A stretch of DNA of 64,000 nucleotides from Eledone cirrhosa (Eukaryota). The position numbers were made by a program, and so were the translations under genes. How positions within the stretch are numbered: position 1 is the first letter of the stretch; each line of letters begins with the position of its first letter. Positions 3,271 through 62,463 of the stretch are shown here, in pieces. Below the pieces are notes generated by a model. That model searched no databases, was not told the origin of the DNA, and saw only the letters and a list, made by a program, of their open reading frames with translations. The stretch lies in the NCBI GenBank assembly GCA_964016885.1, contig OZ024740.1:284518001-284582000 (forward strand). The letters are read 5' to 3'.

Positions 3271-3959
3271 TTTCTTTATTAGCCACAAGGGCGCACAAGA
3301 AAAGGGGACAATACAAAGACATGCCGGGGATTTTACATACAGTCGTGTAAAAAATATAAAAACAAACAATTACAACAATCGAAATCTCCAATAGGGGGGA
3401 GGCGCCACAAATGGGTTGTTTAATACCCCGTAGATAGAACAACCCTCAACTTCAGGAGCGTGTTGTGCAAGTGCTCCTTTCTTCCTTTTGCTCTCTTCTT
3501 CAACCTACAGGCTTATAAACAGAGAAGGCCCAATCACTCGGGCCATTTTTGCTTCATTCACCCACCTTTCAGTAAATTTACTGGGGTGCAGTACCTCTCT
3601 CTCCACCCTGATTCTCCTTCTAAAGTGATACTTAAAGAAGGGAATCAATTGTTGTCCGGAGAGAAAGGCATCTGTCCTCAGTCCTCTCAACCTCGTCCAC
3701 CATATAACTTCTTTCACCATAGCCACCGTACAGAGGAAAACCGCCTCTCTTTCGTTTTTGAAAGAGGCTGGCGGTTTGATCCTTACTATGGACTCGGCAG
3801 TCAACTGGATTTGTCCCATAAGCGACAGCAGTTGTTCTGCATAGTTCCACAGGTCAGTTACAATTGCGTGCAGGACTGTTTCAATGTCCTGCGCGCATCT
3901 TGGACACGTCCTCTTGGAAGGATCCCTGCCGGGGCGTCCATGCCTGTAGATCTTGTCAC
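3271..3959 (-). mobile_element. 5'-truncated Tx1-clade LINE 3' fragment (second subfamily)
   Basis: ORF 3505..3819 (EAVFLCTVAMVKEVIWWTRLRGL..FFKYHFRRRIRVERE..F.ERW) is homologous to the ORF2 C-terminus at 4272-4523. The 3' end AATAAAGAAA runs into (TATC)n. Confidence 0.85.
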
Positions 3960-4271
3960 AGATAGATAGATAGATATGTTTCTATAGATAGATAGATAAC
4001 TTTCTATTTATTTGCCACCAGGGCATCAAAGATTGGGACAAATACAAGGGGGGAGTTTACATACATTTCAAAGGACGTGTAAAAACATATAACAAATCAA
4101 ATTCAACAATCGAAGTCCTCAATAGGGAGGGGGCGTTGACGTGGGTCGCACACAGCCCCGAAAAAATGTGCAACCCTCCTCCTCAGGAGCACAAAGAGCG
4201 GGTGCTCCCTTCCTCTCCTCCTCCTTCTCCTCTCTCACCTAGGGGCTGTTATAGAGAGAAGGCCCATTCAC

Positions 4272-7200
4272 TCAGGCCATTCTCGCCACTTTCACCCACC
4301 TTTCATAAAACTTGCTGGAGTAGAGCACCTCTCTCTCCATTCTGATCCTTGTTCTAAAATGGTACTTGAAAAAAAGGACCAGTAGTTGGCCGGAGAGAAA
4401 AGTGTCTGACCTCAGCCCTTTCAACCTCATCCACCATACAACCTCTTTCTCCATAGCTATCACACAGAGGAAAACCACCTCTCCTTCGTTTTTTGAAATG
4501 GGGAGGCGGTTTGATCTTGACAATGTACTCGGTGGTCAACCAAATTGGTCTCACCCGCGACAGTAGTCATTCCACATAGCCCCACAGGTCAGCAATGCCC
4601 GGGCAGTATACGAATGCGTGTGCGACGGTTTCCTCGTCACGCACGCATCTCGGACAGATCTTCTTCGAGGGGTCCCTACCCGAGCGCCCGTGTCTATAGA
4701 GCTTGTCCTGAACGGGTAGAGCTCCTCGGTAGCACTGCCAAGCCAGGGACTTTTGGAAGTTGTCCATCAGTCCCGGGCCAAACGTTCTACCGACTGGCTA
4801 GCTCGTCTTCCTCCATGCCCAGAGCCTCTCCGAGAGCGTCGTCGCACTTGCTGCGCACCGACCCTCTATAGAATATTGAGGTTGAGTCTCCACTGATTGC
4901 CAGATCCGCTTGCCAGAGGGCATGAGCGCCTGGGCACATTCAATGTGCCAGTCGCCCACTTTTCTCGGTCTTTGCTTGACCCAGGATTGCAGCTCGGTGA
5001 GTGAGACGAGTCTCGGAAAGGCTCGCCTCACAAAAGGAGCCCACACTGGCTGACCGGTGAGGAATACCTGGAGGTGCCGTAGCCTTAATGCGTGTCTACG
5101 CATCGTCAGCCACGGCACCCCCAGCCCTCCGTTCAAAGGGTCTTGACAGCAGATGGATCTTCTCACCAAAGGGGCCTGCTTCTTCCAAAGGAATCGGAAG
5201 AGCGCGTGTTCCATTTTGGCGAGCGTTTTTGCTGGGCAAGGCACGACGGTCAAGCGGTAGCAGATGACGGATGCTATATAAGTGTTCGCCACCTCCGCTC
5301 GACCTTTCAGGGATAGTTTACAGTCGGCCCACTTCTGGGTGAGTGCAAACACCCTGCCCATTACCTCGTCCCAGTTTTTCTCCACCTGGAGGTCCGGTCC
5401 AAACCAGACCCCGAGCAGCTTCACTCGTCCCTCCGTCTAGCGTCCGACGACGCCGTCGGAGGGCATCGGTTTGCCTCTCCACGTTCCGAGTTGCAAACCG
5501 ACGGACTTGTCGCGGTTCAGCTTGGCTCCTGTAAACCTTTCGTATTCCTCCAGTAAGGTGCCGATCTGCCCGATTTCCAAGGCGCACGACACCATTACTG
5601 TCACGTCATCAGTGTAGGCGACACCGCTTTCCCGGTTCCAAGGGGATTCCCTGCAACAACTCCAACTCCCGCAGTAGTGGCTCGAGAGCCAGCACATACA
5701 GAAGAGAGGAGAGAGGTCATCCCTGTCGGATGGATCGCACGATTTGGAATGGCTCCGGGTTCGTTCCCTACCCACTCTACGATGTATCGCATGAGGTGGA
5801 GGTTGTCGTGTATGGACCTGGACAGGATTGCGCATGTCTGCGCTTCTCCTACCAGGTTCCCGACGACAAACGCCAACCTCTTCGCTAACACCTTGGCCAA
5901 AATCTTTAACTCTGTGTTTAGCAGAGTTATGGGCCTGAAGTTATCTATGTCATCTCCCTTGTTCTTGTCCTTCCTCACCAGCGTGACTACGCCCTTGGTC
6001 ACAGAACTGGGAATTCTCCCATTCTGTTGCCAGTTGCAGTAGACCGCCTTGAAGAGATCGGAGAACAAGTCCAGCATCGCTACATAATGTTCGTATGGTA
6101 GACCATCGAGACCGGGAGATTTGCATTTGCCGCATAGGCTCAGCGCTTCCCCTATTTCAGCGGCTGAAATCGGCCTTTCGCAGGACTTCGCCTCCCCGTC
6201 CGAGAGCCGCGGCAGACCGTCGAGGTATGGACCGAAATCCATGGCCTCACCCAGCCCATCGCCCCTCCCGAACAGTCGTGCAAAGCGCAGGTTCAAGGAT
6301 CACACGTCCATCCTGGTCCTTCAAAGACCGAATCGTGGACTTTTTTCCACTTTTTGCCTCTGTCACTCGGGTCCAGCTAACAGCTTTGGCTCCCTCATTA
6401 CCCAGAGCACGTTATTTTACTCCTGACAACACAGCCCTCGTGCTTCGCGTCAAAGAAATGGTCTAGGGCCGTTCTTGACACCAGCACGCCGGCCACATTG
6501 CCCCTCCTAATCGTCTCTTCTACTCTATCTATCAATTCCCTTTCAGTTCTATTCCTATCTGATGCTAATTCCTGACTAAAACCTATCGATCTAATTTCTT
6601 TCTTGAGAGAGCCCCACCACCTGCTGTTGACAATTGGCCCCGTCAACCGCTGCTTAACTAGAGTACTAATCCACTTACTGTAAGCTTTGTTTGTCGGTAA
6701 GGACAAGTTTAGCTTCCAGTAACCGGGTCCTTGTCTATGGGTTCTATCAAGGTTGACCACTCCGGTCACCAACTTGTGATCCGAATAGTCAACCATGAAC
6801 ATTCGTGGACAGCTTAATATGTCCCTATCCTTATTTCTAACTAGGAACCTATCTAGGTACAACCTAGATGTTCCGCTAAGATTAGTCCACGTCCACAGTG
6901 GCACAGTCGGAAAATCTAGTCGATATCTATCGGCCAGATCAAATCGGCTGATTAACCGTTTGAGGATGTTACACCCCCCCTCTATCGGAACATACCCCTA
7001 CATAGACTCAACGTACATCCAGGATACCATTCCAGTCCCCCACTAAAAGCAAGGAGCGAGACGTTCCCAGAAAAGTCTCTAGGCATTGGAAGAAGTCCGG
7101 TCGCGGTGTCCCAGATGGGGCATACGCTGCCACCAGCCTGGAGGCTCTACCTTCCCTACTGCCTACGTCTAGAACCACCAGTCGACCCTTCGGGTCCAGG

Positions 7201-7457
7201 TGTACCTTCCGTGTTGCGAGGCCCAGGTGTTTTCGCAGCAGAACGACCACCCTGTCCCCACGCCCTGGCTGACAGAGAGATGCATAGATCTCAAAGTCGT
7301 CGAAGACGGGGGCCAGTTGGTGCTCGCTGCTGATCCTGGACTCGCAAATAGCTATCACATCCATTCTGTGCGACCTGAGGTCATTTAAGAGTTTGCCCTG
7401 CTTCCAGGACATCCCCAGGCTGCGCACATTTAAACATCCAACTCTTATAACAGCCAT
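4272..7457 (-). pseudogene. Tx1 ORF2 (endonuclease/reverse transcriptase), multiple frameshifts
   Basis: ATG at 7457 (MAVIRVG). Collinear track ORFs 7008-7667, 6398-6904, 5601-6296, 5437-5835, 4798-5424, 4567-4767 and 4272-4523. Confidence 0.88.
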
Positions 7458-7479
7458 GTTGGTGGTGAAGAGTTTAGAG

Positions 7480-8996
7480 TGGAGAAAAAGGAAAAGACAC
7501 CTACCTGTCCTTCTCCTGGGGACCAGGCTGCACAATTTCCATGGGGTGTCAGTGGGGTTGTTTGGTGGGGTGGTGGTTTGGGATGTGGTGGGGACATCAG
7601 TGTGTGGTGGGGTGGGGGTGTTTGGTGGGGGAGGGGTGTCTGGGGTGGTGGTGGGGAAATATTTCAAGAGGACGCGGTTGCTAGGTCTAGTACAGGGGTT
7701 CCCCCACGTCCTCGGGAAAGTTCTGTTTGAGCATTGCGTAGATGTCCCTTGGGACCCTAATCAATCATTTTTAAATGCAGTTTAGTTGCCGCGTTGGTGA
7801 ACATTTTCCCTTCGGTTTCCACCGAAGGGTCTTTGTCTATTGTTTGCACAAGTGTTTTGTTGTTTGTGTTGATGTATGTATACTGTTTTTGTTGTGTTGT
7901 GTTTGTTTTTGTTTGTTGTTCTTGTGTGTTTGCGTTTTGTAGTATGTGTTATGTTTTCGGGGGGGAGGGGGTTGTGATGTTTGTTCTGGTGACCACTTCT
8001 TGAACAGTGGTAGCATGAAGGCCGCCTGCCCTCAACAGAAATGTTTATGAAGGCGACTCCATCCAGGGACACACGCTGCAGTATTCTTGCTATCCGTTCT
8101 GGTCTCATTTGGACCAGAACTTCAAGGCTATTGCCACCGAATACGCCCCCGGTGGATTCCTCTATCGAAAGGATTGTGTCCTCATCTTCTAGGAATCCTG
8201 TTAGCACCCACCAAATGCGAGCATTTGGCCTGATGCCCGAGATTCTTATCTTTTGAGTTCTTTTCCCCAAATATGTGGGGGAAAAGGTGTATGCTTTGGA
8301 TACAATTGGCGACACAGAATATTTCCGTGCCGCCAATTCATCTTGCATTAAAACAGATATGCTTCCATACAGTTTCCCTTTGTGTATGAAAGCGATATCC
8401 TTCCAGGCACTACTTAGGACCAACTCAATTTCGCTTTGGGACAATTGAGCCGGTTTCCTAGTCGTGTTCAAAACTGTCCTAAAGATTACGGTCCTGAGGA
8501 CTGTGTCCCTTCTAATTTCTTCGGGGGAGGTAATTGTGAATTCCCCACCTTCCCCGAAACTTACACAATTCCTTGCTTCTTTCAGCAATTTCTTGGCATT
8601 CGAGATGTCCAGTGCCTTGTAAGTCTGCGTTTCTCGAACCGCCTGTGCGAAGGAGACTGCAGCTGTGGGTCCGTTTTCTTTTGTATTGTTTTCATTGTTG
8701 TTGTTGTTATTCGTGTTGGTTTACTTTTTTCCTTTGTTGGTGTTGTCATTATTGCTGTTTTTGGTTGTGTTGTTATTGTCATTGTTGCTGTTGTTGGTTG
8801 TGTTGTTATTGTCATTGTTGTTCTTGTTTGTGTAATTGTTACTTTTGGGGTTTTCACCCATTTCTACAATTTTTTCTTTTGATTCCATTGTGTCTTTTGC
8901 GGGAGTGAGGAGGGAAGGCTTACAGCGTTGTGCTGCTACCTTCTCTCTATCACTTTCCTTGGGGGGGGTGGCATGAGTCGTATTAATGGCGTCCAT
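7480..8996 (-). pseudogene. Tx1 ORF1 (gag-like, zinc knuckle, low-complexity N/T/P-rich linkers), disrupted
   Basis: Probable start MDAINTTHATPP at 8996. ORF 7782..8588 contains CYHCSRSGH and lies upstream of ORF2. Confidence 0.7.
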
Positions 8997-10065: not shown

Positions 10066-10561
10066 AAGGGAGTGGGGAAGAGGATGAAAGCTTGAAGAAG
10101 ATAGTGGGAAATGAATTTGTGTAGGTTTTAGTTTTCCATGTATGAAATAAAAAGGAGTGTTTCCATATTCAACTTTAGGAGGCTCAAATTTACCATCTCT
10201 GTAGTCCATTCTTCATATGAAACAACAACCAGGTCTATAACAATGTTTAGGAGGAGTAATATCAGAAATAGTAACTTTTGCAATAAAAATATGGATTATT
10301 GAAACATATTATGGGCTGCTGAGTTTTGATTGGTCCAAATGGCTATGATGGTGCATGGGGACAAGTGTGAGGGAAAATGAATGACTTTAAAAGAAGACAT
10401 AAGAAAAAAAGGAGCTAGTCTCTGTGTGAGAGATTGGGGTAAGAAGATGGGATATTTTTGATTTTCGATTAAGATCATAGGAAAATTACTGATAGGAAAT
10501 AACAAATTTTGAGACCTGAAAAATAGTAATGTATATAAATGGACTAGACTAATATATATGT

Positions 10562-12357
10562 ATAGAGAGAAGCATTAAATTAATTGACCAGGTCATGAAG
10601 GTCACAGAAAGAGTTATACCGCAACTAATCAGAGAGCGAATTGATCTAGATGAAATGCAGTTTGGGTTTGTGTCAGGTAAAAGTGCCATGGGTGCTCTTT
10701 TCCTTGTACGACAACTACAGGAGAAGTACCTAGCTAAAAGTAAACCCCTATACTTAGCTTTTGTTGACTTGGAGAAAGCTTTTGACAGAATCCCATGCCC
10801 CATTATCTGGTGGGCTCTCAGAAAACTAGGTGTTGATGAATGGCTTGTGAGAGCTATACAAGCCATGTATAAAGAAACAGTCAGCAAGGTTAGAATTAAC
10901 AACGAATATAGTGAAGAATTGAGCATAAAAGTTGGTGTTCATCAGGGCTCTGTCCTTAGCGCCCTCCTATTTATTATTGCCCTTCAGGCTATAACAGAGG
11001 AGTTCAAGACCGGCTGCCCATGGGAACTTCTATATGCAGATAATCTAACGCTCATAGCTGAATTAATGGTTGAACTAAAGAAGAAATTCTAAACACGGAA
11101 GCATGGCCTAGAATCAAAAGGCCTTAACATTAACTTGTCTAAGACTAAAGTTCTAGTATGTAGGAAGGAAAATAGGGCACAGGTCCCCTCTGGGAAATGG
11201 CCATGCTCAGTGTGTAGGAAAGGAGTAGGCAGAAACTCCATTTTATGTCCCAAATGCAAAGTATGGGTGCATAAAAGATGTAGTAGGATCACAGGTAAGC
11301 TAACTAAGAACATAGATTTTATATGTGGTCGGTGCTCAGGTGCAATAAGTAGTAGCAAGTGCCCACAGGATACTAGCTCCTTCCATTGCCCAGATGGTTC
11401 TATAGAAAGAGTGGACACCTTCCGTTACCTGGATGACAAAATCAGCAGTGGTGGAGGGTGCTCTGAAAGTACAGTAGCTAGAGTCAGAACGGGATGGAAA
11501 AAGTTCAGAGAGCTTATACCACTATTGGCCACTAAAGGTTTCTCTCTAAAAATGAAAGGCAGACTGTATGATGCCTGCATAAGAACAGCAATACTACATG
11601 GCAGTGAGACATGGGCATTGTGTGCAGAGGATCTGCGCAGACTGGAGAGGAATGAAGATTGCATGCTCCGTTGGATGTGTAATAGTAATATACGTGACCG
11701 GCAAAGCATAAATGAACTAAGTGAGAAATTAGGAATAAGAGGGATCAGATGCTTTTTACTTGAGAGAAGACTACGATGGTATGGTCACGTGATGCACATA
11801 AAAGACGACAGCTGTATAAAAAAGAGCAGGGCGATCAAAATTGATGGTAGCTACGGAGTAGGCAGACCCAGAAAAACCTAGGATGATTTGATAAATTCCG
11901 ACCTTACACACTTACACTTCTCCAAGACAATGTCACTGGACCGAGATCGTTGGGGCTATGCAGTAAGTACAAAGCGAAACCTACAGTCAGTAGGCACCTC
12001 TTAATCAAAAATACATCCCCATCCCACTATCCCTACCCCCACCCCCATCTACACCACCACTTTCTCTGTAAAGTTATGTTGGTACTACAACATCCCGTCC
12101 TTAATAAATGAGGTTGTGAAGGTCTCACAACAAAAAAACACACAGTCCACGCTGTAATGTGGCCGTGTAGGTAACACGGTAAAAACCTCCCAGTCCACAC
12201 TGTAAACGTGGTTGGTGTTAGGAAGGGCATCCAGCCGTAGAAAACCTGCCACACAGTCCTATATGAGCAAGACAACCAAACTTGCCTCAAGTGGGACAAT
12301 TCCCGTCTAAATTCATGCTAGCGTGGAAGATAGACGTTAAATGATGATGATGATGAT
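10562..12357 (+). mobile_element. 5'-truncated RTE LINE (RT C-terminal half, 3' UTR, (GAT)n tail)
   Basis: MQFGFVSG, AFVDLEKAFD, GVHQGSVLS, LLYADNL, LHGSETW, RLRWYGHV, GRPRKT, with in-frame stops; the tail is at 12342-12357. Confidence 0.93.
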
Positions 12358-12366
12358 AGTATATAC

Positions 12367-12406
<40 letters not shown>

Positions 12407-12667
12407 ATGTGTGCGTGCGTGTGTGTACATGCGTGTGTGTGTGCATGTGTGTGTGTGTGTATAATACAATAAAGAGAGACAAACACAGATATATACATAT
12501 ATGCATTCAAATTACAATATATACTTTTGATAAATTGATCTCCTGTGCTTTTGTTGAGCTTTTATATGTTGAATGGATCTGGCTGTTATTTTTTAGTAGC
12601 TTACGTTCTATTTGACCTGCTAGGCACGCGATACCACGTGCCTTTTCTCTCTCTTAACACACGTCTG

Positions 12668-13046
12668 GATTGGCAGTATCGGTAGAGGGTCGGACGCCAT
12701 GCTTTGACGTATAGAGTTACGGCCCTTGCCATTCTGAGTTCAAATCCCGCCGAGGTTAACTTTGCCTTTCATCCTTACGGGGTCGATAAAATAAAGTACC
12801 AGTAATGCACTGGGTAATTGCTGGCCTTGTGCCAAAAGTAGAAACAATTATTTAGTCTTCTAATCGGTAGAGGGTCAGACGCCATGCTTTCTAGCATAGT
12901 TACGTCCCTTTACGATCTGAGTTCAAATCCCGCCGAGGTTGACTTTGCCTTTCATCCTTACGGGGTCGATAAAATAAAGTACCAGTAATGCACTGGGTAA
13001 TTGCTGGCCTTGTGCCTAAAGTAGAAACAATTATTTAGTCTTCTAA
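12668..13046 (+). mobile_element. Two tandem copies of young tRNA-derived SINE family A (~185 bp)
   Basis: A box TGGCAGTATCGG, B box GAGTTCAAATCCC, central gcctttcatccttacggggtcgataaaataaagtaccag, tail gtagaaacaattatt. The second copy is flanked by the direct repeat ttatttagtcttctaa (12848-12863 and 13031-13046). Confidence 0.9.
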
Positions 13047-13076
13047 GGAATTTATAGTGGAGAGATTACTGGCCTG

Positions 13077-13157
13077 AACATCCATTGAAGAGCATTGGAT
13101 CTTTAACTCTCTTCACTGAATTGCCGAAACAGTTCTACCCAAAGCTGTCTGGATATT
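13077..13157 (+). ncRNA. Degenerate type I hammerhead ribozyme motif
   Basis: aacatcca-TTGAAGA-gca..tgcc-GAAACagtt..agctGTC-tggatatt. Stems I and III pair; core C3 is T and stem II is imperfect. Confidence 0.55.
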
Positions 13158-13429
13158 GATAGTTATCATAATCGGTTTTTAAATCTTAATTTATCCTTTT
13201 AATGGAGTCTTGTGAACCTTATTATCTTTAGTCAGTATTTTCTTCACTCTGGCATTTGTGATTTGAACGCATATATGTATATATTTGTGTTTGTCTCTTT
13301 TTATTGTATTATAAGGCTCGTAAAATTTTTTCCTGAGCTATTTTGATTATAAGGGACTAATGTGAGTTTTTAACTCAATATACGCTTTTGATATATATAT
13401 ATATATGTGTGTGTGTGTGAGTGTGTGTG

Positions 13430-16322
13430 TGTGATGGCTATGATGGTGTCCATGGAGGTTATGGGTTTGGTACTAGAAATGAGGAAGGCTTCTGCATCCT
13501 GGAATTCTGTGATGCAAATGACCTGACTGTCTGCAACACAAACTTCAAAATACGTGACAGTCATTGGATCACATATAGATCAGGGGGGCACACCAGCCAG
13601 ATAGACTTTATCCTTACTAGGAAACGAGACAAAGTGTCTGTTTTGAACATTAAGTCCCTCCCTTGCAAAGAATGCGCCTTCCAACATAATTTAATAGTAA
13701 GTGACCTTATAGTCAGGGCCAGACGTAATTGCCGGCAGAGGAATACCTTAAGAAGAAGATTATGGAAGTTGAAGAACCCTGCAGCAGTAACAAATTCAAA
13801 GGCATATTACGTGATGCTTTTGATAGTAAGGAAGAGCAATTAGAGTCATACAATATAGAGGAACAGTGGGAATTCCTGAAAGTTAACCTGTTGAAGGCGA
13901 CTGATGAAATCTGCGGCTGGAGCAGACTTCAGGCAGGAGCAGAGTGACATGGTGGTGGAACAGTAAGTTGGAGGAGTCCATCAGGGGCAAAAAGCAGGCG
14001 TGGAATTTCCACGTCTGCCATTCTTTCCACTGGAAAAAATAGCAGGACGGGGATAGTAGAGAACACTATCGGGTAGCTAGGAGAGAAGCTAGACAACAAG
14101 TATACCTTGCAAAGAGGGAAGCAGAGGATAGTAAGTTCGAACATATTCTACAACGGGAGGACCAAAGACGTGAGATATTCAGGATTGCGAGGCAATGTGT
14201 CAAGGAGAACTGTGATATTGTCGGGGAGACGTGTATCCATAATGACGATGGTGTACATGCCCTCACTGATAGTGATAAGAAGGTAGCTTGGAAGTGTCAC
14301 TACGAGGGACTACTGAATGTGGAGAATGAATGGAATAAAGATAGTCTGCCCCATATTGATCCAATAGAAGGACCAGCTGTGCAAGTTAATGGTAGTGTAG
14401 TAAGTAAGGCAATCAAAAATATGAAGACAGGCAAGGCAGCTGGGCCTTCGGGGATAGTTGCTGAAATATTGAAGGTATCTGGAATGGGACATACTATGGT
14501 CACCTGGATAGTAAACCAAGTAATACAGAATGGGGTCATACCAAATGACTGGCATAGCAGCAGCATCATCAACTTTTACAAGGGCAAAGGAGATGCCCTG
14601 GATAGAGGAAACTATAGGGGTATTAAATTAGTTTACCAAATCATGAAAGTCACAGAAAGAGTTATTATTCAACTGATTAGAGACCAAATTGATCTAGATG
14701 AAATGCAGTTTGGGTTTGTGCCAGATAAAAGTACCATGGGTGCTCTTTTCCTTGTATGGCAATTACAGGAAAAGTACCTAGCTAACAATAAACCCCTCTA
14801 CTTAGCTTTTGTTGACTTGGAGAAGGCCTTTGACAGAGTCCCACGCACCTTAATCTGGTGGGCTCTTAGAAAACTAGGAGTGGAAGAATGGCTTGTGAGA
14901 GCTATACAAGCCATGTGTAGAGGAACAGTCAGCAAGGTTAGAATTAACGATGAATATAGTAATGAATCTAGTATAATAGTAGGGGTTCACCAGGGTTCCG
15001 TTCTTAGCCCCCTCCTGTTTATTATTGTCCTACAGGCTATAACAGAGGGGTTTAAGACTGCCCATGGGAACTTCTATATGCAGATGATCTAACTCTCATA
15101 GCTGAATCCATGGCTGAACTAGAGAGGAAGTTCCAAACATGGAAGCATGGAGTTGAATAAAAAGGCCTTAGAGTCAACTTATCTAAGACTAAGGTTCTAG
15201 TGTATGGAAAGGAGAATAGGGCACAGGTACCCTCTGGGAAATGGCCATGCTTAGTGTGTTAGAAAGGAGTAGGCAGAAACTCCATTCTATGTCCCAAATG
15301 CAAACTATGGGTACATAAAAGATGTAGTGGGATCAGAGGTAAGCTATCTAAGAACGTAGATTTTATATGTGACCAATGCTCAGGAGCAGTAAGTAGCAAG
15401 GACCCATTGGATAATATCTCCTTCAACTGCCCAGATGGTTCTATAGAAATAGTAGACACCTTCCGTTACCTGGGTGACAAAATCAGCAGTGGAGGAGGGT
15501 GCTGTGAAAGTGTAGTAGAATGGGATGGAAAAATTTCAGAGAGCTAATACTGCTGTTGGTCACAAGGGGTTTTTCTCTAAAAATGAAAGGCAGATTGTAT
15601 GATGCTTGTATACGAATGGCGATATTACATGGTAGTGAGACCTGGGCATTGTGTGCTGAAGACTTGCGTAGATTAGAAAGAAATGAAGCTTGCATGCTCC
15701 GATGGATGTGTGATAGTAATGTGCATAAATGAATTAAGAGGGAGACTAAGCATAAGAGGTATCAAATGTTGTGTTCTGGAGAGGAGATTGCGTTGATATG
15801 GACATGTGATGTGTATGAAGGACGAGAGCTGTATAAAAAAGTGCAGGGCAATGAAAATTGATAGAAGCTGCGGAGTGAGTAGACCAAGAAAACCTGGGAT
15901 GAGGTGATAAAATTTGACCTTTCCCACCTACACCTCTCTAAGACAATGACACTGGATTGAGACCTTTGGTGCCATGCAGTTGTACAGAAGATCCGACTGC
16001 CATTGCATACAAACCTACAGTCAGTAGGCACCTCTTAACTCAATGTACACCCTACCCCATCCTCCCTCTCCCGTTCTGTGCACTGTGTCTATGACACAAC
16101 AGTCCACACTGTAAGGTGGCCGTGTAGGAAACACGGTGAAAAGGCTCCCAATCCACACTGTAAATGTGGTTGGTGTTAGGGCATCCAGCTGTAAAAAGAA
16201 CCTGCCAGAGACACTTCCGTGCGAGCAAGACATGGTCTTCCGACCATTCCCACATCAAATGGAACAAAACCATTTAACTCATGCTAGCATGGAAGATGGA
16301 TGTTAAATGATGATGATGATGA
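13430..16322 (+). mobile_element. 5'-truncated, decayed RTE LINE (part of APE, RT, 3' UTR, (GAT)n tail)
   Basis: HGGYGFGTRNEEG..SQIDFILTR, MKTGKAAGPSGIVAE, YRGIKL, FVDLEKAFDRVP, GVHQGSVLSPLLF, with many stops and frameshifts. Confidence 0.93.
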
Positions 16323-22884: not shown

Positions 22885-25800
22885 ATCATCATCATCATCA
22901 TCATCAACGTTTAACGTCCGTGTTCCACGCTTGCATGGGTTTGGACGGGGGTAGTCCCACTTGAGGCAAGAGTGATTGTCTTGCTCGCATAGGACTGTCT
23001 GGCAGGTTTTCTACAGTTGGATGCCCTTCCTAACACCAACCACATTTACAGTGTGGGTCTGGGAGGTTTTTACCGTGTTGCCTACACGGCCACATTACAG
23101 CGTGGACTGTGTGTTTTTTTGTCGTGACACCTACGCGATCTCATTTGTTTCGGCCTGGATGGCGCGGCACCAACATAACTTTACATAGAACGGGGTGGTG
23201 TGGATGGGGTGTGGGGGGGGGGGGGGGGGGGGGTATTTTGTTAGAGATGCCTACTGGCTGGAGTAGGTTTTACTATGTATTTAGGTAAGGCGGGTCTTCT
23301 CTGTTACTGAGTACCGCCAAAGGTCTCGGTCCAGTGACATTGTCTTGGAGAGGTGTAAGTGTGTGAGGTCGGAGTTTATCAGCTCGTCCCAGGTTTTTCT
23401 AGGTCTGCCTATTCCGTGGCTACCGTCTATCTTTATTGCCCTGCACTTTGTTATACAGCTATCGACTTTCGTGCGCATCACGTGTCCATACCAACGTAGC
23501 CTTCTCTCGAGTAAACAACATCTGATCCCTCTTATTTCTAATTTTTTCCTTAGTTCGTTTATGCTTTGCCGTTAACGTATATTACTGTTACACATCCAGC
23601 GGAGCATGCAAGCTTCGTTCCTCTCTAGTCTGCGTATATCCTCTGCACACAATGCCCAGGTCTCACTGCCATGCAACATTGCTGTTCGTATGCAGGCATC
23701 GTACAACCTGCCTTTCATTTTTAGGGAGAACCCTTTAGCAGCTAATAGTGGTATAAGCTCTCTGAACTTTTTCCAACCAGTTCTGACTCTAGCTACTGTA
23801 CTTTCAGAGCACCCTCCCCCACTGCTGATTTTATCACCCAGGTAACAGAAACTGTCCACTATTTCTATAGAACCCTCTGCGCAATTGAAAGAGCTAGTAT
23901 TTAGTGGGCACTTGCTGCTACTTATTGCACCAGAGCACCGGCCACATGTAAAATCTATGTTCTTAGTTAGCTTACCTGTGATCCCACTACATCTTTTATG
24001 CACCCATACTTTGCATTTAGGACATAAAATGGAGTTTCTACCTACGCCTTTCCTACACACCGAGCACGACCATTTCCCAGAAGGGACCGCCGCCTTATTT
24101 TCTTTCCTACAAACTAGAACTTTAGTCTTAGCCAGGTTAATTTTAAGTCCTTTTGATTCTAGGCCGTGCTTCCATGTTTGGAATTTCTTCTCTAGCTCGG
24201 CCATTGATTCCGCTATGAGTGTCAGGTCGTCTGCGTATAGGAGTTCCCATGGGCAGCCGGTCTTGAACTCCTCTGTTATAGCCTGAAGGGCAATAATAAA
24301 TAGTAGGGGGCTGAGAACAGAGCCCTGATGGACGCCAACTTTTACGCTAAACTCTTCACTATATTCGTTGTTAATTCTAACCTTGCTGACTGTTTCTTTA
24401 TACATGGCTTGTATAGCTCTCACAAGCCATTCGTCAACGCCTAGTTTTCTAAGAGCCCACCAGATAATGGAGCGGGGGACTCTGTCGAAGGCTTTCTCCA
24501 AGTCGACAAAAGCTAAGTAGAGGGGTTTACCTTTAGCTAGGTACTTCTCCTGTAGTTGTCGTACAATGAAAAGAGCGTCTGTGGTACTTTTGCCTGACAC
24601 AAACCCGAACTGCATTTCATCTAGGTCAATTCTCTCTCTGATTAGTTGTGCTATTACTTTTTCCGTGACCTTCATGACCTGGTCGATTAATTTAATGCCT
24701 CTATAGTTACTCCTATCTAGGGCATCTCCTTTACCCTTATAACAGTTAACGATGATGCTGCTATGCCAGTCCTTCGGAACAACCCCATTCTGTACGACTT
24801 GGTTAACTATGCGGGTGACCATGGTGTGTCCCACCGTGCCAGATGCCTTCAGCATCTCAGCAACTATTTCCGAAGGCCCAGCTGCCTTACCCGTCTTCAT
24901 ATCCTTGATTGCCTTACTTATTATACTCCCCTCGACTAACACTGCTGGTCCCTCTATTGGGTCGATATGGGGGAGACTGTTTTTCTCCCATTTATTCTCC
25001 TCATTTAGTAGCCTTTCATAGTGACACTTCCAAGCTACCTTCTTATCAGCGTCGGTGATGGCAAGTATGCCATCATCGTTAAGTACACACTTCTCCCCGA
25101 CAATATCACGGTTTTCCTTGACGCATTGCCTAGCAATCCTGAACACCTCACGTTTTTGGTCATCGCGTTGTAGAACATGCTTGAACTTTCTTTCCTCAGC
25201 TTCCCTTCTTGCTAAGTACACTTGCCTCCTAGCTTCCCTCCTGGCCACTTGATAGTCTTGTCTACTTCCCCCATCCCGCCATACTTTCCAAGCCTGCTTT
25301 TTGGCCTTAATTGACCCCTCCACCTTACTGTTCCACCACCATGTTACTCTCCTCCTGCCTACAGGCCTGCTCCAGCCACAGACTTCGTCTGTCGCCAACA
25401 GCAGGTTTGCTTTCAGAAATTCCCACTGTCCCTCTATATTGTCCGACTCTAAATGTTCTTCCTTACTGTCGAAAGCATCAAGTAATATGGTTTGAAATTT
25501 ATTTCTGGCTGTGGGGTCCTTTAGCTTCCATATTTTTCTCCTGAGGATAGTCCTCTTCTGCTGTCGAGTACGTCTCGTCCTGACTATGAGGTCGCTAATT
25601 ATCAGTCTATGTTGGGAGGTGCATTCTTCATGGGGGAGGGATTTAGTGTTTACAACAGACACTCTGTCACGTCTTCTGGTAAGGATATAATCTACCTGGC
25701 TTGTGTGCTCCCCGGATCTATAGGTGATCAGGTGATTGTCACGTTTTTTGAAGTTAGTGTTACAGATAGTTAGGTTATTTGTATCACAGAATTCCAGGAT

Positions 25801-26065
25801 TCTGGAGCCTTCCTCATTTCTAGTACCAAACCCATAGCCTCCATGGATTTCGTCGTAGCCGTCACAATGTTGTCCAACGTGACCATTTAGGTCGCCTGCA
25901 ATAATTATATAGTCACTGTCGGATATTTGGGAGGTAGTTAGCATCAGTGTCTCATAGAATCTGTCTTTTATAGTGCTGGGCAGTCCGGATTGGGGTGCGT
26001 ACGCGGATATTACTGTCACCGTAGTTCTATTGAGGACAAGTCGTATTTTAATTATTCTGTCGTTC
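22885..26065 (-). mobile_element. Young RTE LINE lacking only the endonuclease N-terminus
   Basis: Open from about 26065 to 23281 except for one nonsense codon at 23572-23574 (other copies have GAA/GAC there). Motifs ISAYAPQ, IAGDLNGHVG, SQVDYIL, SQHRL, QGSVLSPLLF, LLYADDL. 3' UTR and (GAT)n tail end at 22885. Confidence 0.96.
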
Positions 26066-26166
26066 AAAGACGCCGACAAAGGAGAAGCTCTTCTCCTTTG
26101 TCGGCGTCTTTTCTCGCCCACCCGAGGCTGCCCTTTGGCCCCATGTAGCCTTAGTACCCCCACCAC
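23572..26166 (-). pseudogene. RTE APE-RT polyprotein ORF (864 aa; first ~34 residues are non-RTE read-through)
   Basis: ORF track; RTE homology begins at about NDRIIKIRLVL. Confidence 0.9.
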
Positions 26167-27244
26167 CCCCTCCCCTAGTCTATGATAGATTTGGCGGACT
26201 CCGCCCTTTATAGCAGTTGGCTTAGACCCCGGATACTTGCCCCCTTTTTCCGACCGCTCCCACTATTCTCTGTGCCCTCTATATTTCTTAGTGGCACTTA
26301 TGCCTTATTTTTTCGTTTCAGTATTTCTTGCTTCGCTTTTCTTCTGGGCGGGGTGGATTCTGAATTTATTTCTCCGTATTCTACCTTTATTTCGTACGAA
26401 CTTTCATGTAGCTTGTTTTAGATCTTTTAGAGTTAGCATTAGTATATATTTTTCTCGGGACTCAGAATTATTATCTCATACAAGTTCACTTTGCTGCACT
26501 GGGTCGTTGCTGGCCCGGGATGGATACCTTTATTGTTTATTTTGTGGTAGTCTCTTTAGTATTTTGGCCCCTTTTGTTGACCCGTCACCGTATCATTTAC
26601 GTACTTATACCTCTTAAAAGGGTCCTTGCCTATTTCGTCCCACCTAGTTCTTTTACTTATTTCGTTATTTCTTTATTTATTTATTTCTTTACTTCTTTCT
26701 TTCTTTCTTTATTTTATTCTAGCCTAACAATAGCCTGAGACCTAGGTCGTAGAATTTAATTTACTTTACTTTTTTCTTTACACTTATTTGCTTTTCTTCA
26801 CTCTCAGTATTTTTTCTTTCCTATATATTTCTACCCCCCATTGTTCTACCTACCGTTCCGACTTCCTCCCCCTCCCCCTCCCTGTATCTTCTTTGACCTC
26901 ATGCCCAGCTGTAGCTGGCACTACCAACGCTTGATTGGGTCTACTCCACCCCCTCCCCTCTTCTCCTACTGGCAGGTTTAGCCACCATCTCCCCTACTAA
27001 TTTGCAACCACAGAATTACTACTGATTTTTGACAATCACTTTGACCATATATGGAATTACCCCTTGAGAAGATCGGCTATTTAAATACCAGGATAAATTT
27101 TCATTTAGTCCAGAATTAGCCGTCGAAACGGCTTGAGCTCAGCTGTCGGGGTCTTACTGGTTCCTATTACCCACTCTACTACCTCAAGTATTGAGTACTT
27201 TGGTGCGTTATGGTCCACCTGGTTCCTTACCACATTTCCTTTGT
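26066..27244 (+). mobile_element. Non-coding T-rich Penelope-like/retrozyme-like element with a hammerhead near its 3' end
   Basis: Begins with a 22-bp perfect foldback, carries a hammerhead at 27059-27152, and ends at (TA)n 27245-27267. Confidence 0.55.
27059..27152 (+). ncRNA. Type I hammerhead ribozyme, U3-A8 core variant
   Basis: acccc-TTGAGAA-gatcggcta..tagccgtc-GAAACGGC-ttgagctca-GCTGTC-ggggt. All three stems pair; predicted cleavage after C27147. Confidence 0.72.
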
Positions 27245-40318: not shown

Positions 40319-40355
<37 letters not shown>

Positions 40356-40575
40356 AATTAAGTTAAAAATGTACATCCACATATGTATACTGAAATACTA
40401 GTATGCATATGAATACACACACGTGTACATATGTAGATGTACCGAGTTTTTCACTGGACACTTTACTGTGAGTGTCCAGCTATTCTGTATGTAAACACAC
40501 AGACAAACCGGTTTTTAGAGTCATACTGGTTTTCGAGGAAACACCTTTCCTCTATTCTCCAGAAAGCCAGACAGG

Positions 40576-40620
40576 AATATTGGACTAGTTTCGATGTTGT
40601 TACATCTCATCAGCAATATT
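40576..40620 (-). ncRNA. Canonical minimal type I hammerhead ribozyme
   Basis: Minus strand AATATTG-CTGATGA-GATGT-AACA-ACATC-GAAAC-TA-GTC-CAATATT: perfect core, 7-bp stem I, 5-bp stem II, palindromic ACTAGT stem III; predicted cleavage between 40583 and 40582. Confidence 0.88.
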
Positions 40621-40784
40621 TACCTATCTTCCGGCCTTTCTAGAGAATCGTAAAAGCACATATCGTTATATGCTTTTTCTATGAAAATTAGTAGTGGGCA
40701 GACTAATTTGCATAGAGCGTGAGTACGTACCGGTTCAGCGGAGACGATAAAAACAAATAACGAAACGAAATTAAATTTTGTTTC

Positions 40785-40848
<64 letters not shown>

Positions 40849-58887: not shown

Positions 58888-59937
58888 TAGCCTACTTCTA
58901 TTCATTATAGTCCTCGAGGCTATAACAGAGGAGTTTAAGACTGGCTGCTTATGGAAACTTCTCTATGCATATGATCTGATCCTTATAGCCAAGTCCATTA
59001 AAGACCTAGAAAATAAATTCCAACTATGGAAACAGAATTTAGAATCAAAAGGCCTAAGAGTAAACTTAGCCAAATCTAAAGTGCAAGTGAGTAGGGAAGA
59101 AGATAGGACCTTGATTCCTTCAGGGATATGGCCCTGCTCAGTATGTAGAAAGAGAGTAGGCATAAATTCCATATGATGTACACAATTTAAATTTTGGGTA
59201 CACAAGATATGTAGTAGGATAATGAGTAAGCTAACAGGAAAGGAAGACTTTGTTTGTAGAGGATGCACAGGGGTAACGAAGGGGGAGATAGCCAGTAATG
59301 TAAGCTTATTCCAGTCACAGGAAGGACTTATAGAAGTGGTTGATAGCTTCTGCTATCTAGGCAACGTAATTAGCAATGGAGGAGGGGGAGCTCTGAGAGC
59401 ATAATAGCTAGAATAAGGATAGGATGGAAAAAGTTCAGATAGCTACCCCCACTGTTGACCACAAAAGGTTTCTCCCTACATACAAAAAGACGACTATGTG
59501 GGAAGTGCAATGCTGCATGGTAGTGAAACATGGGATATGACTGCAGAGGTGTGTATAGACTGGAGAGAAATGAAGCAACCATGCTTCTTTGGATGTGCAA
59601 TGTATGTGTGAGAGAGAGAGGCAGAACTTGGAGTAGTTGAAGGAGAAGCTGGGTTTAAAAGGAATTTGCAGATGTGTGCAAGAGAGAAGAGTGTATTAGT
59701 TTGGACATGGGATGTGCATGGACAATGATTGTTGGGTGAAGAAGTGCCAGAAAATGCCAGTGGAAGGAAGTCACGATTGAGGTAGACCAAGAAAAACTTG
59801 GACAAAGTTTGTGAGAGCTTACCTCAAATCACTGAGACTCACAGAGGTGATGACAAAGGATCACAATGTGTGGAGAGATGCCGTGCTGAGAAGGACCAGT
59901 CCAACCCATGCAAGCATTATTATTATGATGATGATAA
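58888..59937 (+). mobile_element. Old RTE 3' fragment (divergent subfamily, short 3' UTR)
   Basis: ITEEFKTGC, LESKGLRVNLAKSKV, VDSFCYLG, MLHGSETW, with many lesions; ends aacccatgcaagca and gat repeats. Confidence 0.85.
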
Positions 59938-60373
59938 TTTATTTTTCTTTCTATCTACCTGTCTACCTGTCTACCTGTCTACCTATCTATTTACCTATAT
60001 AACTACCAATGTACATACTTTCATATATATATATATATATATATATATCTACCAACCTATATATATGTGTGTGTATATATATATAAAAACGAAAAAAAAT
60101 GAAACGAAATTTCATTTCTCACTCTTAGTACGGCTGTTACTTAAATATAAGCATGTATACGTACATACATATATGTATACAGACATGTATGTATATATAT
60201 ATACATACTACTGTATGTATATATATATACATACATGCACACATATATATATATGTACGTATGGATTCACCGAATATTTATTATAATGCTCGGTGTATTT
60301 GTAAACAAACATCCCGAATTAAACCGTAGTGTCTAGCAACCATCGTTGCTCATTTGTTCAACACTGACAAAGG

Positions 60374-60420
60374 AATGGTGTACTAGTTTCAAGCTTATTA
60401 GCTATCATCAGCAACGTATA
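60374..60420 (-). ncRNA. Minimal hammerhead ribozyme related to the 40576 copy
   Basis: Minus strand CGTTG-CTGATGA-TAGCT-AATA-AGCTT-GAAAC-TA-GTA-CACC. The core is intact; proximal stem I is weak, while the distal arm gttcaaca/tgttgaac pairs. Confidence 0.7.
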
Positions 60421-60814
60421 CCTTCCTGCCAGATTGTTGAACGTCTGAAAGTATATACTTTCCTTATGCATATTAATGGCTGAGTAGCCCAATTTGCATA
60501 TCGACGTATACATGCTTATATATATATATATATATATATTTGCATATCGATGTATACATGCTTATATATATATATATATATATATATACTCTACTACTAC
60601 GGATATAACCCTCCAGTGTTCTACCTTTATATATATATATATATATATATACATACCACATACCTATATTCCTATCTATTGCACCATTTTAGAAACTATG
60701 AACAATTTTTACAAACTCCAGTGAAGAAGTAAGTCTATGTAGTAAATTATATTTTATCCCTGCCCCCATCCACAGATAATATCCTCTCTGCCCTCTCATC
60801 TCTTACTCTCACTT

Positions 60815-60927: not shown

Positions 60928-61640
60928 AATTACAGTTACTCTGTGTACCTGTTGATTTGTGTACTTGCATGTGAATGTGTGCAGACCAAAATGAACACGT
61001 TTGCACAACACATACACACACACACACACCCGCACATACACATTCACACACACATATACAATCACACACACACATACAGTCACGGAGACAGAGAAATGAA
61101 GTAAACGAAAATAGCTGCCAGTAAAGTTATGTTTAGATGATACAGCTGATATAAAATCTTAATCCACCGAATAGTTAGAAGCTTAAAACAGCTGCCAAAT
61201 CCACCACGACCACCCCTTTTGTTTGGAGTCCTTTTCTTACTTACTTTCTTTTTCCTCTACACTCTTTCTTTGTTTTATATTTTTTTCTTTTCCTTCACTT
61301 TTTTCCTTTATTTTTTTTTATTTTCTGCTCTATTTTTCTTTCTTGTTTCTATTTGTTATTTTTGTTATTTTTCAGTTGACAATTAGCGGATGGTTTTGAT
61401 GGTTTCACTTAAAACAGACCAGATGCTAAAATTATAGCTGCCGAGAAACTAGAAATTTGAGAATAATAATAATAATAATTTCTAACATAGGCACAATGCC
61501 AAAAAATGTGAGAGAAGAGAACAGGTGATTATATGGAGTCAAGTACTTGACTAGTACTTTATACTATCAACCACAACATTTGAACACAGAACATAAAGAG
61601 CCATAACTAAATACCACAAGGCATATTGTCTGACATTCCA

Positions 61641-62463
61641 GGGTAAGAACGGGATGGAAGAAGTTCAGGGAACTACTGCCACTGCTAGCTGCAAAAGGCT
61701 TCTTCCTTAAAATGAAAGGCAGACTGTATGATGCCTGTATCCGAACAGCAATGTTACATGGTAGTGAGACCTGGGCGCTGAAGGTGGAAGACTTACGTAG
61801 ATTAGAAAGAAACGAAGCCTGCATGCTCCGATGGATGTGTAACAGTAATATACGCGAACGACAAAGCATAAATGAATTGAGAGAGAGACTGAGCATAAGA
61901 GGAATCAAACGCTGTGTGCAGGAGAGGCAGTTGCGTTGGTATGGACATGTGATGCGTATGAAGGATGATAGCTGCATAAAAAGGTGCAGAGCACTAGAAG
62001 TCAATGGCAACCGCGGAGTGGGGAGACCCAAGAAGACCTGGGATGATGTGATAAAAGCTGACCTTACCCAATTACACCTCTCAAAGGCGTAACTGGGTAA
62101 ACCTCTGGCGTCACGCAGTAATACAGAGTACCCGACCTCCCATGGGTATAAGCTGAAGCATATAGACAATATGCCCCCACACCCTCCCGCTGCAAGGTGG
62201 TCGTGGAGGTGCCACGGCAAAAAAGCACCCAGCCCACACTGTAAAGTGGACGTGTAGGCGCCACCGAAAAAGCACCCAGCACTCACTGTAAATGAGGTTG
62301 GTGTTAGGAAGGGCATCCAGCTGTATAAATCAAGCTAAAATCAGTTCCTGTATGAGCAAGGCATGGTCAGCTGACCGGCTACTGCCCACAGCAGGACAAC
62401 CCGTCTAACCCATGCTAGCGTGGAAGAACGGACGTAAAACGGTGATGATGATGATGATGATGA
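61641..62463 (+). mobile_element. 5'-truncated RTE with 3' UTR (two 48-bp units), inserted in an old SINE
   Basis: MKGRLYDACIRTAMLHGSETW..RQLRWYGHV..GRPKKTW; ATTCCA direct repeat at 61635-61640 and 62463-62468. Confidence 0.92.

Follow-up and report, generated by a model that had tools for sequence, protein, structure and literature searches.

Results

Two retrozyme copies in the window

The window analysed here is a 64-kb stretch of the Eledone cirrhosa genome (OZ024740.1, GCA_964016885.1; 3.0 Gb in 1,796 contigs). It holds two short elements built around a hammerhead ribozyme, one near 60 kb and one near 40 kb (Table 1), and a regular-expression search of the two strands locates the hammerhead core nowhere else. 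The two stretches are very probably single copies of two different high-copy families, A and B respectively, of non-LTR retrozyme, a known kind of element. The family A copy is 91% identical to a natural unit over 60094-60504 (blastn); it is 5'-truncated a few bases upstream of the octamer described below, its 3' boundary was read from the sequence, and it contains no protein-coding ORF, the only long frame over part of it being a low-complexity antisense stop-free stretch. The family B copy terminates at the short one of two preferred 3' ends, running into (TA)n. Family B is the younger of the two, and its 40-kb copy combines fully paired stems with a GUC triplet. In the 60-kb copy, stem I is mismatched at two of its proximal 6 bp and stem II has a U-U pair at its base; this copy is probably a weak ribozyme.

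At the 5' junction of the family A copy (60505-60590), a short piece is duplicated, with the octamer start plus an inverted internal fragment occurring twice and (TA)n between. The window also carries LINE-type retrotransposon fragments with endonuclease and RT frames (3500-8720, 10553-15089, 23575-26262, 59500-59900 and 61634-62089), one of which is an 896-aa open frame on the minus strand at 23575-26262.

Table 1. Features of the two retrozyme copies, in window coordinates
Feature	Position	Strand	Remarks
Family A retrozyme copy	60086..60504	-	slightly less than one ~430-bp unit; runs into (TA)n at its 3' end
Extended octamer, family A copy	60489..60500	-	TATGCAAAT(T/G)RG; AATTTGCATA in the first-pass annotation
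Predicted proximal sequence element (PSE)	60470..60483	-	starts with TCAG, 17 nt after octamer start
TATA box	60452..60457	-	26 nt after TCAG; centre of the palindrome in the first-pass annotation
Minimal type I hammerhead domain	60356..60442	-	long stem I, stem II, GAAA, one-pair stem III with palindromic ACUAGU
CUGAUGA, 60-kb copy	60411-60405	-	
Predicted cleavage, 60-kb copy	between 60381 and 60380	-	after GUA
Two-hairpin module	60266..60311	-	UGUUUR-loop-YAAACA hairpin, then 10-bp hairpin
3' tail between short and long preferred 3' ends	60086..60150	-	about 59 nt; GAAATTTCGTTTC hairpin
Family B retrozyme copy	40351..40791	-	466-bp unit, 99% identical to other copies
Octamer, family B copy	40714-40706	-
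CUGAUGA, family B copy	from 40613	-
Predicted cleavage, 40-kb copy	between 40583 and 40582	-	GUC
Two-hairpin module, family B copy	about 40504-40454	-

A first-pass annotation had described the two copies as sharing architecture but not sequence, with one order of modules on the plus strand and stems that differ while pairing is kept. The motifs it quoted are where it placed them: caccga (60268) and tcggtg (60290), ctggacact (40454) and agtgtccag (40471), gtaaaca(a/c)aca (60301 and 40491), actagtttc (60382 and 40584), tcatcagcaa (60405 and 40607) and AATTTGCATA (60491 and 40705). The common order of modules is real, read from the wrong side: the CTGATGA of the hammerhead runs downwards from 60411 and 40613 on the minus strand, and the plus-strand order is therefore the antisense one. 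The divergence in sequence was overstated, since 161 of 239 aligned columns (67%) are identical between the copies and their alignment scores 176, against 68+/-9 (maximum 94) in 300 shuffles. The two copies are thus diverged homologues. A short palindrome and a stem I arm listed as shared, gaaagtatatactttc and gttcaaca..tgttgaac, occur in the 60-kb copy only, the 40-kb copy having other hairpins at those places, and both elements are longer than the span that had been quoted (Table 1).

Families, copy number and unit anatomy

The shared core pattern of families A and B has 19,604 exact matches in the genome (reversed control, 0). First-look candidates numbered 4,319 for family A (40 scored, 42 matches) and 1,820 for family B (40 scored), with identities of 95-100% in each. 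Units of about 430 bp in A (420-433) and about 466 bp in B (461-469) stand head to tail, and the longest array found has 30 full units. Patterns with the octamer upstream of the core and other stem II starts gave 2,065 and 506 extra matches (control, 0) and revealed older lineages, C-H, while two octamer-less families, I (312 bp; L326, L379) and J (L299), were found incidentally in flanks. Folded as circles, natural A, B and I units reach z scores of -8.2, -8.0 and -4.8, respectively, with a GC of 0.34-0.36. Families A and B are, as part of an overall explanation that we regard as reasonably probable, two members of a diversified superfamily of noncoding tandem retro-elements.

Several further observations concern the genomic setting of these families. 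Two arrays (L421, G000:C1:49583000-49590000, and L284) show a perfect ABAB alternation of units in which neighbours have ~14 differences and alternate units 0, through either rolling-circle copying of a dimer or its expansion at the DNA level. Family F copies recur every ~50-120 kb at G000:C1:143.34-143.79 Mb, which suggests a large segmental tandem duplication, and one copy of the U1 gene cluster (L235:181 region, C2) has a family B element no more than about 1.3 kb away. The octamer-less families, i.e., the 312-bp unit and its relatives (L326:1060-1880, L379, L299 and L045:35-340), share the two-hairpin module and have, 76-77 nt before the core, a PSE-like YCAGTTCCT. Additional hammerhead-bearing repeat families in flanks (L021, L025, L047, L058, L015, L154, L175, L317, L319 and L323) mostly have the short AU-rich stem I typical of the pseudo-LTRs (pLTRs) of Penelope-like elements (PLEs). 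Pieces of family A also occur in four contig runs from organisms A, B and C, whose library type is unrecorded and which are uninformative on transcription.

Covariation of the hammerhead and the two-hairpin module

Twenty-seven representatives, hand-picked from 39 clusters of 189 distinct cores and related to each other, were aligned with MAFFT. Over 13 hammerhead pairs, 80.4% of cells are paired with 63 double-sided changes, a score that 0/500 shuffles reach; relatedness of the representatives inflates this shuffle test, and the better control is to slide the partners out of register, which leaves 27-37% paired. The pair count is lowered by rows G1-G4 and H5, in which the stem III loop is extended and stem I is out of register. 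RNAalifold recovers only 3 pairs of stem II from the raw MAFFT alignment, and the pairs were therefore counted on a named structure. Of 19 representatives (family I and 18 of the 27), 15 retain both hairpins of the downstream two-hairpin module, whose sequences differ between families. Shuffles of this module have a mean of 6.9 and a maximum of 12, and 0/300 are as good. The first-pass proposal that selection acts on RNA structure across a diversified family of ribozyme elements is supported by the hammerhead and the two-hairpin module alike. A reading of GTAAACA as a forkhead site was dropped, the motif being part of a hairpin whose sequence varies across families.

The claim that stems change and pairing is kept applies to the hammerhead stems and fails for the octamer hairpin and the TATA palindrome of the 60-kb copy, where there is no covariation (54% paired, with 500/500 shuffles as high). 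Folded alone, the TATA region has a median z of -0.4 over the 27 representatives. The octamer/PSE region has a median z of -1.6 and reaches z<=-2 in 12 of the 27, with differing pairing partners; RNA structure therefore constrains that region too. For the octamer and TATA modules, promoter elements in the DNA whose primary sequence is conserved are a better reading than hairpins in the RNA. Rfam at gathering thresholds returns nothing in the window, and at E<=10 the 75 sub-threshold matches over 60000-60600 are mostly miRNA models on TA-rich sequence and include no hammerhead family.

Promoters of host snRNA genes

The upstream DNA of 20 of the 48 listed U6 matches was examined. Three distinct host U6 promoters have TATGC(A/T)AAT(T/G)AG at -77, -78 and -79 and a TATA near -30. 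Among the other matches the octamer is displaced by an insertion in two cluster copies, stands at -276 in one and is absent from the rest, and the octamer-less matches look like pseudogenes. In the U6 cluster on C19, L187 and L190 have a ~190-bp repeat inserted at the TATA box, with the octamer displaced to -270. No octamer lies within 130 nt in any of 18 host U1/U2/U5 upstream regions. In the 15 nonredundant U1/U2/U5 promoters, TCAG or a one-base variant is always found at -55 to -58, and a TATA-like run follows 23-31 nt after TCAG in 14; AATTA lies 32-34 nt upstream of the PSE, at about -89, in 14 of 15 host U1/U2/U5 genes, with the TATA-like run near -30. The PSE of the host U6 genes may start inside the end of the octamer. 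The host loci are L181, L182 and L183 for U6, and L209-L230, L261-L267, L273 and L276 for U2, U1 and U5.

Candidate promoter motifs carried by the retrozymes

Upstream of the hammerhead the retrozymes carry a constant series of motifs: TATGCAAAT(T/G)AG, then TCA(G/C) 17 nt from the octamer start, then TATA. The distance from octamer to TATA is 42-46 nt in 22 of 27 representatives and 40 in one, TATA not being found in four, and that from TCAG to TATA is 26-27 nt in most, inside the 25-28 nt of the Pol II snRNA layout. The invariance of octamer and core in lineages C-H follows from the search patterns, which required both. The AATTA found 32-34 nt upstream of the host PSE is absent from families A-H, which have the octamer 17 nt upstream instead; since 0/18 host Pol II snRNA regions have an octamer within 130 nt, no host counterpart was found for its combination with Pol II spacing.

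A matrix built only from the 15 host U1/U2/U5 promoters was applied to the retrozymes, and its maximum over the 27 representatives falls at octamer+17 (mean -2.1 bits, a weak match in absolute terms, versus -28.3+/-4.5; z 5.7, 0/300 column-permuted nulls). With six representatives, one per lineage, the result is similar (z 5.4, 0/300 nulls), while the two window copies alone give no significant match (232/300 nulls) and the PSE part of the matrix alone is borderline (15/300 and 17/300). At a lower pseudocount, scores above zero are seen in only 3 of 20 representatives; p<0.05 is reached by 14 of 20, family B not being among them (p 0.23). In the octamer-less family I, the best of 672 positions scores 8.6 bits and is on the same strand as the hammerhead, 77 nt before the core, the host leave-one-out range being 0.3-29.9; the best site in family J, at -76, is weak (1.2 bits), and several other incidental long-stem hammerheads have no PSE-like site.

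An 8-nt deletion that removes the palindrome and keeps the octamer-TCAG-TATA spacing is present in 58 of 100 listed A copies by hand count, long arrays included, and by script 14 of 30 A loci are deleted and 15 full. Host gene geometry predicts the family A transcription start near 60427, about 56 nt after the PSE. No 5' ends pile up there: in the 63 nt inspected, about 8 of 100 copies have an end, at dispersed positions between -20 and -60, and 3 of 89 A copies have 5' ends 11-13 nt upstream of the core.

Insertion ends and the autonomous Penelope-like family

Families A and B each end at one of two preferred sites followed by (TA)n, with an overlap of 1-5 nt of T/TA between each 3' end and the repeat, as read from the sequence. 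TATATA directly after the long A end gives 2,567 exact matches (control, 0), and among 30 loci each, short and long ends number 11 and 15 in A and 7 and 10 in B. The 3'-anchored family A set consists of the first 90 listed places minus L383, which has the wrong anchor (n=89). Next to 46 of these 89 copies lies an inverted piece of 60 nt or more; 55 extend past the first predicted cleavage site, 13 past the second, and 42 are longer than one unit. Only 4 of 89 have a 5' end within 6 nt of a cleavage site, where no ends pile up. With few ends at that site and many beyond it, cleaved linear monomers are not the main template; both circular and uncleaved multimeric RNA fit the ends. In a post hoc view, the interval 320-399 nt from the 3' end (TATA-to-octamer region) holds 1 of 89 5' ends, neighbouring intervals being well filled.

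An autonomous PLE family is abundant in the genome. Its ORFs have motifs that, on translation, we take to be RT and C-terminal GIY-YIG, it has its own hammerhead and two (TA)n-abutting ends, and L431 holds a pLTR-ORF-pLTR copy. Pfam and PDB sequence searches gave no informative match for these ORFs. In a comparison with 11 PLE-bearing loci, in which one PLE family was sampled in depth, the A, B and C units show no similarity, short family I matches in one flank being the sole similarity found. That a family A copy is the 5' pLTR of an adjacent PLE ORF was considered and rejected, since (TA)n intervenes and the autonomous pLTR differs. Many autonomous PLE copies (L102-L120, L431) have an octamer, TATGCAAAT(T/G)AG, about 125 nt upstream of the hammerhead and antisense to it, which in L102-L120 lies about 1,100-1,310 nt downstream of the ORF; this antisense octamer region does not fit the Pol II snRNA matrix. 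In L138 and L020 the PLE octamer is in sense orientation, probably through rearrangement.

Discussion

The first-pass annotation had put these elements forward as an undescribed system, which is not supported: in anatomy they match animal non-LTR retrozymes, which are non-autonomous Penelope-like elements. All the sequence-testable features that PMC7229834 and bioRxiv 10.64898/2026.07.22.740005 give for the retrozymes of coral, mussel and axolotl are present: the tandem units measure 420-469 bp (312 in family I), and each has a single type I hammerhead motif, no ORF, a GC below 50% and a highly self-paired circular form. A length of 420-469 bp is toward the top of the size range of animal retrozymes, and the one-pair palindromic stem III, the two fixed 3' ends into (TA)n and the 5' inversions set the present families apart. 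Plant LTR retrozymes are different, having type III hammerheads in LTRs with PBS and PPT, whereas here the hammerhead is of type I and the units stand head to tail. With Penelope/Poseidon-type elements and non-autonomous Chlamys such as MRC1 (PMC8557442, PMC11167929), the retrozymes share partial tandems, inverted 5' pieces, an optional tail between RT starts, AT-rich or microsatellite targets and a minimal hammerhead; they differ from them in lacking an ORF, in a tail of about 46-70 nt rather than 30-40, and in their dissimilarity to the autonomous copies compared. In the titles and abstract openings of the open-access literature on octopus or cephalopod retrozymes and on hammerheads with Penelope, no account of this superfamily was found.

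The kind of element is thus known, and the less ordinary part, which the first-pass annotation missed, is the likely self-carried promoter. We consider it likely that the retrozymes carry an snRNA-type promoter of their own, whichever polymerase uses it, and a somewhat better than even bet, judging from the motifs and their spacing, that this polymerase is Pol II. Pol II is favoured because the PSE-TATA spacing is that of U1/U2/U5, because the octamer-TATA distance is 3-5 nt shorter than in U6 and because runs of T5-T6 are crossed. That an invertebrate retrozyme superfamily captured the host snRNA machinery through a composite promoter, with a U6-type octamer, a U1/U2-type PSE and spacing, and a TATA box immediately ahead of the hammerhead, has in our estimate only slightly more than an even chance. 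A self-carried promoter contradicts a 2020 review (PMC7761336), according to which metazoan retrozymes seem promoterless, and has a precedent in newts. In the titles and abstract openings covered, no such promoter appears in any invertebrate retrozyme, and the term proximal sequence element is absent from the retrozyme and hammerhead papers listed. Newt satellite 2 is a hammerhead-bearing tandem repeat with an internal Pol II snRNA-type promoter, as stated in PMC2220036 (citing Coats, Zhang and Epstein 1994). The likeness to this amphibian repeat, whose unit is about 330 bp, rests on that description, and the motifs here match this host's own snRNA promoters and are very different in sequence from those of the newt. 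The same source credits the schistosome satellite with its own internal Pol III promoter, and the present retrozymes are likewise short, non-autonomous candidates for carrying a promoter of their own. tRNA-derived SINEs are also short, non-autonomous and promoter-carrying, but the candidate promoter here is of the upstream PSE/TATA type, not A/B boxes, and ARAGORN finds no tRNA gene in 6/6 retrozyme loci, a scan that degenerate heads could escape.

Could the same superfamily be transcribed from a U6-type Pol III promoter made of octamer and TATA, with multimers arising by read-through of T runs? The octamer and its flanking (T/G)AG do match host U6 and not U1/U2/U5, and T runs of 5-6 occur near the preferred 3' ends of A and B. 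However, the octamer-to-TATA distance of most retrozymes falls below the 47-51 nt of U6 (a range that three promoters define), a three-gene U6 matrix gives no clear peak, long A ends include CCGTT past the T6 run, the 42 of 89 copies that exceed one unit must have crossed such a run, and runs of five or more T are absent from the family I unit; we therefore hold Pol III use to be unlikely. Slightly less likely still are ordinary retrozymes that have no working promoter and depend on host read-through, their octamer and TATA being relics or serving RNA folding or protein binding. This would agree with the low matrix scores, the lack of significance of the window copies and the folding of the region in many families, but it leaves unexplained why a 12-nt U6-promoter motif at a fixed distance from TCAG and TATA persists while the stems turned over, and why a host-only matrix finds the same offset as well as a correspondingly placed site in a family that lacks the octamer.

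A more distant explanation is that the units are detached pLTRs of autonomous PLEs, or a DNA-amplified satellite, with no retrotransposition of their own. Higher-order arrays, namely the perfect ABAB heterodimers (L421, L284), are compatible with unequal crossing-over, and the 2026 preprint (bioRxiv 10.64898/2026.07.22.740005) derives retrozymes from pLTRs. Thousands of dispersed copies with fixed 3' ends, variable 5' ends and inversions speak against it, as do the (TA)n that sets off PLE ORFs beside A copies and an autonomous pLTR hammerhead that differs, with no similarity to the A, B and C units, so that we consider it very improbable.

The reading we prefer is thus a promoter-carrying retrozyme mobilised by a PLE. 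The sequence data establish how many copies there are and how long the units are, their tandem and inverted arrangement, the 3' ends next to (TA)n, the covariation of the hammerhead and the match of the upstream motifs to those of host snRNA promoters. The cycle that we propose from these data, from factor binding through transcription and cleavage to reverse transcription, is as a whole reasonably probable. A POU-type factor would bind the octamer, SNAPc the TCAG element and TBP the TATA box. Transcription, by Pol II more probably than by Pol III, would then begin within the 5' arm of stem I, about 16-28 nt before the catalytic core. The transcript would read through into the next tandem unit, and the hammerhead would cleave it, probably as dimers formed via the palindromic stem III loop, with unit-length circles possible. 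A PLE RT/GIY-YIG protein would then nick (TA)n and start reverse transcription from one of two internal sites, and copying would cross the cleavage site on circular or uncleaved multimeric RNA. Because the copy extends beyond one unit, it would inherit the upstream promoter, which the transcript of an ordinary snRNA gene cannot do. Copying by the enzyme of a Penelope-like element is likely in view of the insertion anatomy: PMC8557442 lists partial tandems, inversions, a tail and a microsatellite bias as PLE traits, and PMC11167929 has the tail set by two internal RT start sites and unprocessed RNA as the main substrate in vitro. A Xenopus preprint reports self-cleavage in only 1 of 9 tested dimers, which counts against this reading, and bioRxiv 10.64898/2026.07.22.740005 calls the retrozyme mechanism unresolved.

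These findings bear on several questions. The snRNA promoter layout of this genome has been defined as a by-product, the conserved two-hairpin module is a candidate protein-binding site, and the ends of thousands of insertions constrain trans-mobilisation by PLEs. For the transcription of animal retrozymes this superfamily offers a sharp test, with a predicted start and three mutable motifs, a naturally occurring deletion in which the TATA spacing is uncoupled from the hairpin, and families with and without the octamer that can be compared. If the composite promoter is real, animal retrozymes would be self-transcribing parasites, not passengers of read-through, and newt satellite 2 would be one instance of a general rule.
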